Below, piece by piece: positions 1,298 through 58,762 of a stretch of 64,000 bases of DNA. Every line of letters starts with the position of its first letter. Position 1 is the first letter of the stretch. This DNA is from Octopus vulgaris (Eukaryota), in the NCBI GenBank assembly GCA_951406725.2, contig OX597815.1, forward strand, positions 190,650,001 through 190,714,000. Reading direction: 5' to 3'. The notes below the pieces were generated by a model. The model was given only the letters and a program-made list of their open reading frames with translations. It ran no database searches and was not told the DNA's origin. The position numbers and the translations under genes were made by a program.

Positions 1298-2192
1298 ACT
1301 ACTCTTGAAAATGAGGCTTCTAAAATTGCAACCTCATCTTATCATTTTGACAAATTTCAGTTCATGCACAATTGGTTGAGGCTACGAAACGACAACAACA
1401 ACAACAACAAATTGCTCCAGCATGGCCACGGTCAAATGACTGAAACAAGTAAAAGAGAGTAAAGGAGAGTTATTTTACTGTTTTGTGTTTGTTGTTTAAC
1501 TATAGGTCAAGTGTGATCAAACATTCTTGAGGTTCAGTGTATTCCATTTATGACCATCCTCTGTTATATTTATTTCATGACTGACTTGCTTTTTTTTTCT
1601 GTTTTTCTTGGATTTTTTTTTTTGTCGTTGTATCTAAGACTACATAACCTGATGTTGTAGGTACAATTTGTGGATGATTTAGCTACTATTTCTAGAGGGT
1701 TGAGCAGCTATATAGAAGCTTTTAGCATAAAGGAGTAGACTTGAACATCAATTAAAAACTGATCTATTGGTCCTACAGCATGGCACCTTGGGCAAGTATC
1801 TTCTACCATAGCCTAGGGTGAACGAAAGCCTCATGAGTGTAAATTGGTGACAAGTCAGAGGCATGTCTGTGTGTATGTGTTTGTCTTTACATTTGACATT
1901 ACTTGCAAAACTAGTGTCGGTGTTTTTGTTCCATCACTTAGAGATGTGATAAACAGAAATCGTTAACCTAAGTACAGGATTGAAACAGCAATTGTTTTAA
2001 TGACTGCAAATTTATAAAGAACCAGTTATTAATTCCCACTCTTTGTTATGGTGAGCATGACAAAAAATATTTCTAACGCAATTTGTTCACAAAGCCTTGG
2101 TTTTTTTTAGTTTTCTTTTCATTTCTTGTATCCATATAGATGTGCATTCTCAATTATGCAGTGTTCTATATATACATACATGCATACATACA

Positions 2193-2231
<39 letters not shown>

Positions 2232-2234
<3 letters not shown>

Positions 2235-2445
2235 TAATCCAAACAAGAAAGCACAAAAAAACACAACGTGAGGACGTGGAACAAATATAGTATTATTGGA
2301 CGCTCAGGAAAGAAGGAAAGAAGGAGCGTTTAACATTTCGAGCAGAGCTCTTCATCGGAAACATAGGAGAAGGAAAGATCCAGAGAAGGGAAGACAGAGG
2401 AAAAAAAAAATCGCCAACGGTACACACGCGGTCACATTTTGAAAG
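2232..2445 (-). mobile_element. Short Penelope-like (pLTR-derived) element with minimal hammerhead motif, between (TA)n tracts
   Basis: Contains the hammerhead motif at 2328-2362; shares ACGCTCAGG flank and layout with 4335-4527 and 53345-53490. Confidence 0.55.
2328..2362 (-). ncRNA. Minimal type I hammerhead-like motif (CCGAUGA core variant)
   Basis: Minus strand GTTT-CCGATGA-A-GAGC TCT GCTC-GAAA-TG-T-T-AAAC: stem I GTTT/AAAC, stem II GAGC/GCTC, stem III ATGT (probably decayed ACGT palindrome). Confidence 0.6.
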
Positions 2446-2653
2446 ATATATATATATATATATGTAAGTTATCCAATAATTTTTTTGCTAGTTTATTTTG
2501 TCTCTTTGTCTTCTCTCCTGGTGCTGTATGAACACATAATGTGGTTTTAGAGGCAAGTTTTGGCTGTTATATCTAGCATGGTGGTATCTCTTAGGTACCC
2601 TTAATTATAATTTTAATAATAATTATTACCTATTAATAACAATTATTACCTAT

Positions 2654-2881
2654 TTCATTATTACCCACAAGGGGTCAAACACAAGGGGGACAAACAAGGA
2701 CAGACAAACGGATTAAGTCGATTACATCGACCCCAGTGCATAACTGGTACTTAATTTATTGACCCGAAAGGATGAAAGGCAAAGTCGACCTCGGCGGAAT
2801 TTGAACTCAGAACGTAACGGCAGACAAAATACCGGTAAGCATTTCGCCCGGCGTGCTAACGTTTCTGCTAGCTCGCCGCCT
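2654..2881 (-). mobile_element. tRNA-derived SINE, family B monomer (Nin/Deu-like domain)
   Basis: Minus strand GGCGGCGAGCTAGCAGAAACG..GAGTTCAAATTCC..GCCTTTCATCCTTTCGGGTC; TSD TTATTACCTAT. Confidence 0.85.
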
Positions 2882-3153
2882 TTTATTACCTATGAGGTTT
2901 TTATTCCCATGCTAGCCACTTCATATGATCTGTACTTTAAATAATGATGTTATCCTTGTTTATATAAATTTATATATTTACTTCGTCATTATATTCACTG
3001 CTGTGGTATTTTGACCATATTGCATGAGGAGTTTAGGCGGGCAATTTAAACTGGTCATGTGCATATGTGCATATATGTGTGTATATCTACGTATATGTAA
3101 GTTTTTGTATGTTGTATATATATAGATTTGTATTTATGTACTATTTTGCCTAT

Positions 3154-3212
3154 ATTCCACTGATGAAGGCAAAGCATTTTTTATGCAGAGCCAGAAATCC
3201 TGGATCTGGAAT
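3154..3212 (+). ncRNA. Type I hammerhead ribozyme motif
   Basis: ATTCCA-CTGATGA-A-GGC aaa GCAT ttttt ATGC aga GCC-A-GAAA-TCCTGGA-TC-TGGAAT: 6-bp stem I, canonical core, near-palindromic stem III, AUC cleavage triplet ending at 3206. Confidence 0.8.
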
Positions 3213-3461
3213 TATCCAATAATTTTTTTGCAAGTTTATTTTGCCTCTTTGCCTTCTCTCCTGGTGGTGTGTGAACATTTAATGTGGTTTTAGAGTCAAT
3301 TTTTGGCTGCTATATCTAGCATAGAGGTATCTCTTAGATACCCTTAATTATAATTTTGATAATAATTATTACCTACGAGGTTTTTATTCCCATGCTAGCC
3401 ACCTGATATGATCGGTATTTTAAATAATGATCTTATCCTTATTCATATAAATATATATGTA

Positions 3462-3507
<46 letters not shown>

Positions 3508-3629
3508 CAATAATAAATCTCTGAATGAGGTATAAACAGTAGCTGCACGACAATGTGAAGTATATTTGCCACTTAAATGTGGCTAACCACTAAGGGTGGA
3601 TGCTACAATAGCTTGTAGCCCTAGGAGAA

Positions 3630-3758
3630 CAGTCTTTCGAATACCCCCAAAAATAGAAGTCAAGAGGGGTCAGATCAGAGGATCTAGGGGATCTTTTAAA
3701 CTGTTTCTCATAAAAAATAAATTTTTCCTATGTATGGAGACTTTTAAATCACTCTGTA
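3630..3758 (-). mobile_element. Tc1/mariner remnant: terminus joined to PRSSDLTPLDFY motif
   Basis: Minus strand begins TA-CAGAGTGATTTAAAAGT and encodes PRSSDLTPLDFYFGG, a decayed WPPRSPDLTPLDF motif. Confidence 0.6.
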
Positions 3759-3774
3759 TACATACATACATATA

Positions 3775-4329
3775 CAGGGTCAGGCAAAATGATCTGACAC
3801 ATTTGTAGGTTAAATAAAAGGCATTGTTTTTCGTTTCTTTTTCAGTTGCTGCCATGAATTGGACTGGTGAGCATTGCGCTTTTATTGTGGAAACGTTTAT
3901 CAAAACAAACTATTCTGTAACTGCAACACAAAGAGCGTTCTGTTTGCACTTCAATCTTGGTAGACATGATCCCGTACCAGCTCGAAACACGATCTTGTTA
4001 TGGGTTACCAACTTCAGAGCTACTGGATCTGCATTGAAACGAAAATCAACCGGCCGACCTAGTACTGCCAGAACTTAAAGATGCAATTCGTCAAGAAATT
4101 ACTGCCATTCCACATGAAATGACCCGCCGAGTTATTGACAACTTTCGTGAATGCCTTCGACAGTGTGTGGACAATAATGGATCCCATTTGACTGATTTAA
4201 TTTTTAAAACATAATGAAACAAAATGGCTTTATATGTACTTTTCAAAAATAAAAACACTTTTTTGTTTCTTTACTTCATTTGCCTTTTATTTAACCTAGA
4301 AATGTGTCAGATCATTTTGCCTAACCCTG
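3775..4329 (+). mobile_element. Internally deleted Tc1/mariner transposon with DUF4817-type N-terminal HTH
   Basis: 29-bp TIRs CAGGGT(C/T)AGGCAAAATGATCTGACACATT, TA TSD; N-terminal MNWTGEHCAFIVETF..SVTATQRAF..GRP fused out of frame to C-terminal ELKDAIRQEITAIP..QCVDNNGSHL*. Confidence 0.9.
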
Positions 4330-4426
4330 TATATAGGGAGAATTTACGAAAAAAAACAAAGGACGAAGACAGGTGGTGTACAAAACAAACAGATGTATTA
4401 GTATAACGCTCAGGAACAGAAAAAGT

Positions 4427-4462
4427 CTTTTACATTTCGAGTCTATGCTCTTCTACAGAAAG
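4427..4462 (-). ncRNA. Minimal hammerhead-like motif with non-canonical CUGUAGA core, in short PLE-like element 4335-4527
   Basis: Minus strand CTTT-CTGTAGA-A-GAGCATAGACTC-GAAA-TG-T-A-AAAG. Confidence 0.45.
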
Positions 4463-4800
4463 GGACACAGAAGAAACAAGGAGAGAAAAGAAATGTGTGT
4501 GGTGGCTAACGATCTATCATGACAACTGATATATATATATATATATATATATATTCCCCCACACTGGATGGCATGCTGGTCAGTTACTGGACTGACCTTT
4601 TTTTTTCTGGCGGCCGATTGGACTGTGGTGACATAAATTGAAGTGTTTTGCTCAAGAATACAACACCTTGCCTGGTGCAGGAATATTACCGTCATGATTG
4701 CAACACCCTAACCACTGAGCCATGTGCCTCCACATGCACACACATATACACAAGCACGCCCATACACACTTACACATACGCACACACATATACACACATA

Positions 4801-6398: not shown

Positions 6399-6444
6399 GA
6401 CACCTGATGAAGGGTGGAGGGTATATCAGCCGAAAGGTTGTTTT
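6399..6444 (+). ncRNA. Degenerate minimal hammerhead motif in PLE-like fragment (6346-6505)
   Basis: GACAC-CTGATGA-A-GGGTG gagggtatat CAGCC-GAAA-GG-T-T-GTTTT; core intact, one mismatch in each stem. Confidence 0.55.
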
Positions 6445-6621
6445 AACAACAAACAAGATGAGGACAAATATCTGTCAAATGTAAATAATGTAAATAATGT
6501 AAATAATTAACAATGTTGTTGATTGCTCCCCTGTTATCATCATGCACAAACTGATGAATTTTCTCAACATTTCCAAAGGTGACCCTCATTGCATGTCTTT
6601 CAGATCACTCATTGTCTCCTT

Positions 6622-9022: not shown

Positions 9023-9071
<49 letters not shown>

Positions 9072-12039
9072 TATATATATATATTAATAAAAGGAATTCC
9101 AACCTTGTCTGATTTTCACGTTTTATTTACAATCTTATAATGATATAATATATAATATAATGGAATAAAATAAAATAGTAGAATGTTAAATGTTCATTCT
9201 GATTGAACTAGTACTTTCATGCATTAAATTATGCAATCTTCAGGTTCATGTAGTAGTGGTGACAGTCATGCTTCACAATTTTTGTATATATATATATATA
9301 TATATACACAACAGGATTCTTTCAGTTTTTCTTATCAAATCAAATCACAAGGCTTTGGTTGGCTGGCACTTTAGAAGGCACTTATCCAATGTACCACATC
9401 GTGGGACAGATCTTGAAACCATGTGGTTGAGAAGCAAACTTCTTACCACACAGCCACACTGGAAACTATCCATACCTGCATATATTATCATTATTTTATT
9501 TCATGTAGAAAATTAACCGAAGAAAAAGATTTTCAAATCATTAAATTTGTGATATACATCAATCTGAAATAAAATTAATGAACTGCTTGGAGTATTTTAA
9601 TTTCATAAGAATGAACTCAGAGTTAATGACTATTGATTCAATAATTATACCACTGTTTCTCACTTATATTTTTTTAATCGCTTCTTTTAGTCAAAGTCAT
9701 TAAGGTGTGTTAATGATTATGCTATTTTTTCCTTCAGGTGTTCAACATTGGAAAGATATTATTTCCTATTATTTCCTCTACAATATTAGATGTAACTCAA
9801 ATTTGGCCTAAACCTTGAGCAGGCTTTTAAGAATGGCTAATGTTTTTTTTTTTTTTCATAACTCAGAAGAGAGAGGACAGGCCTATGACCCTTTTCAGAG
9901 AATTGTGGGAGGGAAGAAACAAGATATCCTCAAGCAGAAGATCTGACTTGAACCCAAGGGCTAAAAGTTTGTGTTAAACCAGTCTATAGATTAAGTCCAG
10001 CACAGGAATAAAAATAGACCATTTGATAGACTTCCACATAGATTTTTCAACCAAGCTATAGTAGAAGATGCTTACCCCAAAACAGGCAATGTCACTCAGC
10101 ACACAACCTCATGATAGATCACTGCTAGCTCTCACTGCACATGCAACAGTATGCTGCCATCTGTTGGCACACTACAAAGCAAGTCCAAGCACCTTTTGAC
10201 TCCACCTCATAGGTGATTCAACGAATCTAGTATTCAACCAGTCCTATTTAATAGATCAAACTTGAAACCTTATAGTTAAAGAGCAATCTTCTTCTATAGT
10301 ACACTGATATCTTGATCTTAAACAAATGACAAATCTCTCCAGGATATGATACCAGTTTACTTTGGTAACATTTCCTGATGTTATGGTATCTATTCCTTGT
10401 ACTCAAAGTCTATAGAATGAAGCGTACCTATTCCCTTAATGCACAGTAAAGCAGCTACAGTGGAATTAAAACCTTGGCTTTATTAGCTGGTAGTCCAATA
10501 CCATATCAACAGTTCGCAAGAGTATGAGAGAATCGCTCAACAGATTAGAAAATGTACAGTCATTATATAGCAACCACACTGTTTGTTTCTTCTGGTTGTA
10601 GACCAACATCATAATGATTTCCCCAGGTATGACTCTCTGAAACACCTAACCTAGAATAAATGACATCATTGGTATTGAGACACAGATAATTGCAATAACC
10701 TTAGCTTCCAATCCTTCCTCTCCCTCTCAAGCTTTCTCTCTCTCATTCCAATCCAATTACTAACCAGCAAGAAGATGTATGGCTTTTTCAGCTGTAGCTA
10801 AGATGACACATCTAGGAAGTTGTGCACTCTGAAAGATATCCTTACATATAAAAGTAGTTTTTGCTAATGCATAGGAAAGATATGGGTTTCTTTTTCCCTT
10901 GAAACCAGTCCAGGAAACCAGTCCAGGAACTTTGTACAAGTGACTTATTTGCACCATGAATCTCAGAAAGCTAAACAAGGTACATGTCTCTTGCTGGAAG
11001 GGACATACGGGTATCAGAACACCTTGCTGGATTTATACTCAAAAAAGAGACAGGTAGATGGTTGTTATACTGAAGCCTTTCCTAGTGAGACATGTATACC
11101 TCAACACAAATGTAAATTAAAATCAAAATGAGGGTGAAACATTGGATATTAATTTGATAACATCAATTTTAACACCAGTGGTCTAGCATATAAAAAAACT
11201 GAGATTCAGTAAATAGTATTACATACATAGAGATAAATTGTGTAAGTAAAATTACATAATTTATTGATAGTGAAACAATTGTTTATGATTAATCTATATT
11301 TTTGTTACTTTTCATTTGTCTTGCTCGCTTACGTTTCTGGTGCTTGCTAAATTTTCTAGAGAACAACTCTTAGTGGTTAAGACCATAGCGGATCTTCTTC
11401 TAGCATAAGGGTTTCCACATAGTGGTAAAAAATTCCCTCTTATATTTATGTATCAACACAAATGTAGACAGGAACATTAGTTAAAAAGACTTGGGAACAA
11501 AAACCAGCAGGGATAAGAAAATATGGGTGTTAAAAATAGCTGTCTGTAAGCTGAAACATCATCTAAACATCATCAGGTGATATTAATTACAATAAGGAAG
11601 AAATACAAATTGACAACAGAGAGGCTAGTTGGATGTTCTGAAAGGACAGCATCCAGGAAGTCACAGCTAAGATTTATAGATGAAGAAGAGCATCATGGAA
11701 TAGTATAGCAGATAGTACTATAATTAACAACCCTGGAATATGCAGAAGAAATAGACAAGCCAAGAGAAATATCTAAAAGCTAAGGCAGGGGCAATTAGTT
11801 CCAGTTTCAAGTTTCTCTTGGGGAGAAACTTGAACATTTGAACATCTTGTTCGCTTTAGAAATATATACATCTGTGCCAAGATAATTCATTTACTTGTTT
11901 CAGTCATTTGACTGTGGCCATACTGGAGCATCACCTTTAGTCGAACAAATCGACCCCAGGACATATTCTTTGTAGGCCTAGTAATTTACTGAACCACTAA
12001 GATTTTTGGTGATAAATTAAAGAAAACAATTTGGGTACT

Positions 12040-55245: not shown

Positions 55246-55422
55246 GATCTTATAGAATAAAGATTGTTTGCCAACATAACATGGCAGTCCTAGTTTAGGA
55301 TGAATGTTGCTGTAATTTAGCCCCAGGAGACATCGTCTCCAGCTGGCTATACGACACGATCTGTGTCCTTACATTTTCGAACAAGGGAATCTAGCAAACT
55401 CACTCAGCTCAAAACAATATCT

Positions 55423-55466
55423 GTGTATTGCGATTTCCAGGTTATGTCCCTTCATCAGGGATGCAC
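55423..55466 (-). ncRNA. Degenerate hammerhead-like motif in PLE-like fragment (~55260-55470)
   Basis: Minus strand GTGCATCC-CTGATGA-AGG gacataa CCT-G-GAAA-TCGCA-ATACAC; stems I and III imperfect. Confidence 0.4.
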
Positions 55467-58019: not shown

Positions 58020-58560
58020 CAAGCTGGGTATGTTTGGTACCAGGTAAGTGTGGCTGGATTGTTGCAATTTTTTTGTAAAAGAAGGAATATCTGTAAGAAA
58101 TCTCTTAAGACGAGTTACATAATCATTAACATCTCCATTAAAAGAATCGGTTTCTTCAAACATTTAACCAGGTAGAGTTAATGTTGTTCCGTACAAGAGT
58201 TCAGCAGGAGAATATTGTAAATTTTCTTTAACAGCACTTCTAATTCCTAACAATACCACTGGTAAGGCTTCTAACCAACTGTTAGAATCAGAATAAGTTC
58301 TTCATGAAAATTTCAACTGCCTATGAAACCTTTCTATCATGCCGTTAGATTGTGGGTGATATGAAGTTGTACGAATTCTATTAATCCCCAACAACTTATT
58401 GAATTCTGCGAAAAGGCTAGACTCAAATTGTCTACCACGATCTGTTGTCACTGTGTTTGGTATGCCAAATCTAGACATCCAATTGGTAAATAAGGTTTTC
58501 GCTATAGTTACTGCAGGATCAAGAAGGAAAGGTTCTACCCAGATGGCTGGGTGTCTGTCC
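58020..58560 (-). pseudogene. Gypsy LTR-retrotransposon integrase core fragment
   Basis: WMSRFGIPNTVTTDRGRQFES..RTTSYHPQSNGMIERFHRQLK*..WLEALPVVLLGIR..SPAELLYGTTLTLPG*. Confidence 0.92.
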
Positions 58561-58762
58561 TTCAACATGATCCATATGTAATATTTTTTAAACATGTCTC
58601 CGTAAAATTCATTGTTTATAATCTCATCCGTAATTTCATTTGAAATTTTTAACCGTGTAAAGCTACTTCACCCTTCATGTTTGTCTGTCCTTGTTTGTCC
58701 CCTCTTTGTAAATGCCTAAATAGCAAATTATATGAAATAAAGTAGTGTCACAATAAAATACT

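Follow-up and report, generated by a model that had tools for sequence, protein, structure and literature searches.

Metazoan non-LTR retrozymes are described as repeats of 150-450 bp with RNAs of 170-400 nt (PMC7229834; 10.64898/2026.07.22.740005), and Li et al. (10.64898/2026.07.22.740005) have proposed that animal retrozymes derive, as non-autonomous forms, from Penelope-like elements (PLEs). PLE insertions are reported to be marked by partial tandems, by inverted copies that are truncated at the 5' end, and by a tail at one of the two ends (PMC8557442). With purified PAc, the Poseidon PLE of the green anole, both DNA strands were seen to be cut and extended; two internal starts bound the tail, and the template was unprocessed RNA (PMC11167929). 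In metazoan type I hammerhead motifs a palindromic helix III is predicted to need a dimer (PMC4209133), and the axolotl motif HHR_Amex2, which has a U-U mismatch at the base of helix II, is reported to cleave weakly as a monomer and better when dimeric (PMC7229834).

Here we analyse a repeat in a 64,000-nucleotide stretch of the Octopus vulgaris genome (the window), for which a preliminary description had proposed a cDNA copy of a self-cleaved, retrozyme-like RNA. It belongs to an old non-autonomous Penelope-like/retrozyme family; the class is already known, and taken by itself this locus is a decayed repeat of an ordinary sort. A literature search that took in neither most subscription papers nor Repbase nor the retrozyme supplements (which may list cephalopod motifs) returned nothing on this family and, within the same limited scope, no report of coupled start sites in PLE arms.

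A 1.5-unit repeat split by a later insertion

Comparison of the window with itself matched 2469-2632 to 3212-3375 at 91% identity with a spacing of 743, and 2883-2975 to 3366-3458 at 90% with a spacing of 483. The two spacings together give an insertion of 260 bp and a unit of 483 nt. This unit is AT-rich (31% GC), and an ORF scan of 2463-3451 found no frame of at least 120 aa, so both the ~1.5-mer and its ~483-nt non-coding monomer are borne out. Unit positions are numbered below from +1, base 3207, the first base 3' of the predicted hammerhead cut.

All parts of the repeat lie on the plus strand. The (TA)n left flank ends at 2456-2466, which is identical to 3451-3461 and forms a possible short target duplication that would take in TGTA, the bases first described as the opening of the element. 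The upstream partial unit follows in two parts, 2467-2632 (about +5 to +169, within the 91% repeat, its true start lying in 2463-2469) and 2893-2968 (+170 to +245, within the 90% repeat). Next comes the single-copy half of the unit (2969-3206), which contains an internal TA/TG microsatellite and the hammerhead's 5' portion and is colinear, whole or almost so, in the 30 best family loci. The downstream partial unit (3207-3451, +1 to +245) stops at the family's long 3' end. Within it, a 7-bp hairpin precedes the family's short 3' end at +148 to +155 (3326-3361), a putative first reverse-transcription start, and a ~95-nt 'tail' runs from the short to the long 3' end (3362-3451), the latter being the putative second start. 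The (TA)n/(TG)n right flank at 3452-3503 is the insertion target.

The later insertion (2633-2892) is bounded by a TTATTACCTAT duplication and also holds a short local duplication. Its minus-strand repeat at ~2660-2880 is SINE-like; the core of this repeat occurs 17 times in the window and 0 times in shuffles, and no tRNA was called on the 260 bp. The length, the minus-strand repeat and the duplication of the SINE insertion first described are thus found, its SINE identity being putative.

Other repeats lie near this one. Two mutually related, TA-flanked repeats on the minus strand occupy 2231-2445, directly left of the 1.5-unit repeat, and 4330-4520. The first has a minimal-hammerhead-like motif (CCGATGA..GAAA near 2335-2356) and the second a degenerate motif near 4435-4460, and they have 79-93% matches in the GIY-YIG loci L278, L300, L267 and L269. 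An element at 3773-4331, with 54-nt terminal inverted repeats at 96%, TA flanks and broken transposase-like frames by eye, is presumably a Tc1/mariner remnant. Further away, a 121-aa frame at 58302-58667 on the minus strand looks by eye like a fragment of an LTR-retrotransposon integrase core.

A conserved hammerhead motif with an unpaired A before GAAA

The hammerhead motif spans 3146-3219 on the plus strand. Its stem I pairs 3154-3159 with 3207-3212, followed by CUGAUGA at 3160-3166, GAAA at 3194-3197, AUC and a predicted cut after C3206. Helix I has 6 bp plus a 3-bp extension (3146-3148/3217-3219), and helix II is interrupted (3+4 bp). The core CUGANGA, GAAA and NUH elements are present in type I order, and with the palindromic helix III the anatomy is as previously claimed. 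This palindrome has a one-base centre and reads TCCGGGA in 15 of 40 copies. It cannot close fully within one molecule; an intermolecular duplex is predicted at -8.1 kcal/mol, and the ribozyme would act as a dimer via this helix.

The full pattern fits 40 of 80 family copies, with the core variants CTGATG (28), CTGAAG (9), CTGACG (2) and CTGAGG (1). Of 599 cells in the five helices of 30 copies, 95.8% are paired, compared with 15-45% in slid controls, a count made on related copies that is not proof of selection. The expected conservation of the hammerhead in the family is upheld by this. In 9 of the 30, a C-G pair of the helix I extension is replaced by U-A, probably through a single change that was then inherited.

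The base of helix II departs from the canonical form. An extra A on each side of stem II had been remarked on: the 3' A, directly before GAAA, is family-wide (37/40 copies), but that on the 5' side is not (18/40). The helix II pair directly beside G12 is absent, with an A-A mismatch or bulge instead, and the parts of the retrozyme and PLE hammerhead literature that we consulted contain no precedent for a lone 3' bulge at helix II. The suggested check against Rfam gave no hammerhead match in 1500-4500 of the window at E<=5. Should this form, with its unpaired A ahead of GAAA, prove to cleave, it would widen the descriptors used in hammerhead searches, since Rfam misses it.

The bare core pattern has 18 matches in the window where 8.5 are expected, weakly above chance, and the motif alone folds weakly (z -0.42). 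In the copy here the ribozyme fold lies 11 kcal/mol above the predicted minimum. The corresponding distance is 4.5-17.6 kcal/mol in 27 of 30 copies, the other three not being scorable, and the ribozyme fold is the minimum in none of those scored. On such folding predictions the hammerhead of the copy here is probably inactive. Elsewhere in the window, CTGATGAAG..GAAA motifs at 6404-6445 (+) and 55418-55458 (-) are likely remnants of other PLE-derived families.

Two fixed 3' ends are paired in two-armed insertions

A search with 2893-3451 against the 2.8-Gb, 227-contig assembly, whose contig C2 holds the window, yielded 3546 candidates, of which 40 were scored; the best matches are 80-91% identical. 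An exact 29-mer (+120 to +148) identified 742 copies and exact cut-site 17-mers a further view of the family, 600 with C before the cut and 43 with another base, so the monomer is far from single-copy. We took the first 100 of the 742 29-mer copies in genome order, on contigs C1 and C2, and extended each by alignment, giving a sample biased to less decayed copies and unbiased for the 5' end. Its 3' ends fall into two groups, 49 at +148 to +170 and 47 at +202 to +258, with 4 beyond. Most of the long ends are at +246 to +258, where the alignment enters the TA flank.

Of 97 loci, 61 have an inverted piece of the unit beside the copy. Distinct back-to-back insertions number 84, of which 61 combine a short with a long 3' end, three are long/long, one is short/short, and 19 have an unclassable or interrupted end. 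Short/long pairing therefore accounts for 61 of the 65 classable cases (p 2e-14 vs 50%). The long arm extends beyond +140 in 42 of 51 insertions with a clean junction, so that the stretches of the unit copied by the two arms overlap; the arms made by L1 twin priming are not known to overlap. At the locus studied here only the long-start arm is visible, 1.5 units long. Arms stopping at the same base (11/51 vs 3.2 in shuffles) include several overlap artefacts and were left unused.

TA runs lie within 25 nt on the left in 47 and on the right in 40 of 67 two-armed loci, and target-site duplications, found in 1 of the 67 vs 0.2 in shuffles, are not detectable family-wide. Tandem repeats are 90% identical within an insertion and 87% between loci (closer within in 22/23), and arm pairs 92% and 87%, respectively (closer in 55/57, a few loci being counted twice). 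Such likeness within insertions agrees with a single source RNA, or a single subfamily, for each event. By the same identities (90-92% vs 87%) the family is old.

Copies were also examined for the head-to-tail arrangement that had been anticipated, and most proved to be sub-monomer and two-armed instead. Within 900 nt, only 6 of 80 copies reach the upstream unit. Two same-strand ribozymes occur in 4 distinct loci of 261 (a number that includes duplicates), three of them about one unit apart. No head-to-tail arrays were seen in the samples of this non-exhaustive search. The locus studied here has one ribozyme, where an active retrozyme would have two.

A probable Penelope-like mobiliser acting in trans

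The family displays the hallmarks of non-autonomous PLEs, namely 5' truncation with partial tandems, an inverted arm (61/97), a tail on one end (61/65) and an AT-rich target. From the footprint, that is, high copy number, two fixed 3' ends, scattered 5' ends (see below) and coupled arms, and from this only, we infer a Penelope-like mobiliser. Our preferred explanation, which we hold to be probable, is that an old non-coding 483-nt hammerhead repeat was put into a TA microsatellite by a Penelope-like enzyme in trans. Footprint and motif conservation together bear out the earlier assignment to a retrozyme/PLE-type mobile family with a dimer-type hammerhead motif. A GIY-YIG endonuclease would break AT-rich DNA in both strands. 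On RNA of a single source, reverse transcription would be primed by the two DNA ends at two different internal starts, the short (+148 to +155) and long 3' ends corresponding to the first and second starts. The two cDNAs would then be joined.

Intact ORFs with RT plus a GIY-YIG domain at the C terminus (781 aa) are present in the genome. Two points count against the trans-mobilisation proposed: the tail of ~95 nt, as against 30-40 nt, and the outcome of a search for an autonomous partner with the same terminal repeat, none being found in 39 GIY-YIG loci out of thousands. The sole DNA match at these loci is a short two-armed copy ~1.3 kb beyond the ORF of L293. Conversely, 9 of 261 family loci have PLE protein matches, which are fragmentary and differ in position. 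In one coding GIY-YIG PLE family, the terminal repeat bears a hammerhead motif likewise mismatched at the helix II base.

Several related elements were encountered in these comparisons. A terminal-repeat fragment of a coding GIY-YIG PLE family, 90% identical to L295 and L297, is present in the window at 9071-9284 on the minus strand; in its hammerhead motif (~9200-9248) helix II is flanked by a T on either side and helix III is palindromic. A young PLE family at L292 (1245-3587) and many further loci has many intact 781-aa frames with equal scores and was probably active recently; at L292 a separate frame of at least 327 aa lies upstream of the PLE frame. L301 (2888-6115) holds a young hammerhead array, 5.6 units of 485 nt that agree at 99%, accompanied by an inverted arm and by a flank duplication of 62 nt. 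Identity of the 483-nt unit with this 485-nt family was considered and rejected, the two having weak colinear similarity only (scores 57-59, shuffled maxima 44-54; nhmmer E 0.095). The similarity lies downstream of the cut and spans both 3' ends, a pattern of sequence that hints at a recognition region shared by the two families.

Most copies read through the cut site

The 5' ends of the 100-copy sample are scattered: 70 stop short of the cut (+7 to +120), one stops at it and 29 go past it. Read-through of the cut in 29 of the 30 copies that reach it indicates that the usual template had an intact ribozyme junction. For that template we see roughly even chances of a circle that was cut and re-ligated, and somewhat smaller ones of an uncut read-through transcript. 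With 6 of 80 copies reaching the upstream unit and two ribozymes at 4 of 261 loci, sources for circles are few. Piles of 5' ends at -78, -92 and -144 were left unused, lying inside the internal microsatellite where the alignment breaks; they could conceal a transcription start, and the count of partial tandems would then be a lower bound.

The strongest competitor to the circle, a serious one though we give it rather less than an even chance, is a linear transcript read through, uncut, from a tandem master locus, as with the usual PLE partial tandems; insertion would then need neither ribozyme nor circle. It draws on the reports that PAc ribozyme mutants insert normally and that no RNA-seq reads end at the PAc cut (PMC11167929), and on the 8 of 9 tested Xenopus dimers described as showing no cleavage (10.64898/2026.07.22.740005). 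It also gains from the first 100 of the 600 listed cut-site matches, which include no same-strand pair spaced by one unit. However, the copies at L027, L055 and L160 extend past a second ribozyme and would require a dimeric master or a circle, and the weakly related young 485-nt family does form a 5.6-unit array at 99%. In addition, the circular unit folds at -123.8 kcal/mol vs -96.8 +/- 7.6 for 40 shuffles, to which the microsatellite may contribute.

A further explanation, unlikely in our judgement, is that the insertion copies a self-cleaved RNA, the stop at this locus being the template end left by the hammerhead. The upstream copy does start between +1 and +6, as this would have it. The preliminary description had the repeat start at its own cleavage site, which is not so as it was put: aligned with the downstream TGGAA-TTATCC, the first seven bases of the upstream copy (TGTAAGTTATCC) contain one substitution and one insertion, exact identity beginning only at +6, and the rest of the two copies differs by ~10%. 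The same first bases can also be read as part of the 11-nt flank duplication (2456-2466 = 3451-3461) or of a 12-nt match to 3092-3103. As the flank duplication and the 12-nt match are both of low complexity, none of the three readings is proven.

Of the 43 cut-site matches with a non-C base before the cut, 15 begin precisely at +1, with one further ambiguous case. Three of these starts form one cluster, leaving ~13-14 independent events. (At C15:67.65-67.67 Mb, L058-L060 are three cut-start copies within 20 kb, two with an identical junction, and are likely one event duplicated locally.) Starts at +1 thus make up 15-16 of 643 copies (2.3-2.5%), or ~2% per base after allowing for chance T matches, compared with stop rates of ~1.3% per base at +11 to +80 (49 stops) and ~0.4% per base at -1 to -60 (20/80). 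There may be a modest excess of stops at the cut, and the roughly threefold drop upstream of it, which also speaks for self-cleaved templates, could be truncation falling with length or a minority of cleaved templates.

Against this stands a pattern catching stops from -3 to +10 alike, whose 41 matches were read by eye by their first exact base. They give two starts at -3, four at +1, two at +2, seven at +4, one at +5, one at +6 (the upstream copy here), four at +7, five at +8, three at +9 and seven at +10 or beyond, together with three internal deletions and two ambiguous cases. Stops at +1 (4/41) are therefore no commoner than those at +4, +7 or +8, and nine distinct TA-flanked starts are at -3 (one), +1 (three), +4 (one) and +7 (four). 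Moreover, the 1.5-unit copy here itself runs through one cut site. A start at the cut as the rule of the family was rejected on these grounds, the absence of a +1 peak and passage of the cut by 29 of 30 copies, which leave the idea of the 5' end as a mark of self-cleavage wrong or unsupported. Ordinary 5' truncation most likely explains why this copy stops within six bases of the cut, and the closeness of the stop to the predicted cut is probably chance.

A composite of these ideas appears to us highly doubtful: a circular ribozyme RNA would be copied from both break ends by a dimeric Penelope enzyme, with one active site per start and overlapping template parts, and a few templates would be opened by a hammerhead tolerant of the A before G12, the copy here recording such an end. 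Local tandem duplication of a satellite-like sequence through DNA recombination, in which no RNA would take part and the hammerhead would be a chance look-alike, could draw on the 31% GC, the missing Rfam match and the weak fold of the motif alone, but is contradicted by the insertion footprint, with copies dispersed over many contigs, fixed 3' ends, coupled arms, conserved helices and the C-G to U-A switch (9/30, probably inherited once), and is scarcely credible.

Comparison with known systems

Like metazoan non-LTR retrozymes, the family has a non-coding low-GC unit, one type I hammerhead per unit, a 6-bp helix I, a palindromic helix III and PLEs in the same genome, and its defect at the helix II base recalls the U-U mismatch of axolotl HHR_Amex2 (PMC7229834). 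Unlike them, its unit measures 483 nt, its copies are mostly sub-monomer and two-armed rather than dimers to multimers, and the locus has one ribozyme with an unpaired A before GAAA. The long helix II, the palindromic helix III predicted to need a dimer and the unpaired base 5' of helix II (18/40 here) are shared with minimal and variant PLE hammerheads (PMC4209133); the Results text of that paper makes no mention of an unpaired base on the 3' side.

With PLEs including MRC1 (PMC8557442) the family has in common 5' truncation, the partial tandem, an adjacent inverted copy, a one-end tail, a microsatellite target and a hammerhead in the repeated end. It differs from the PLEs described there in having no ORF, no parent found and a tail of ~95 nt rather than 30-40 nt. 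The family has its use as a data set: its near-obligate pairing of a short-start with a long-start arm converts the qualitative one-end-tail rule of PLEs into a prediction that in vitro work can count.

The family also resembles PAc (PMC11167929), which likewise has two internal starts downstream of the hammerhead and an AT-rich target, and with which the putative extension of both DNA strands and the putative uncut-RNA template would agree. That 29 of 30 copies pass the cut accords, in a genome, with the uncut-RNA template of the test tube. PAc is autonomous and the 483-nt unit is non-coding. Finally, the two strands extended by PAc in vitro are alike in start site, whereas the two ends of an insertion here nearly always differ (PMC11167929).
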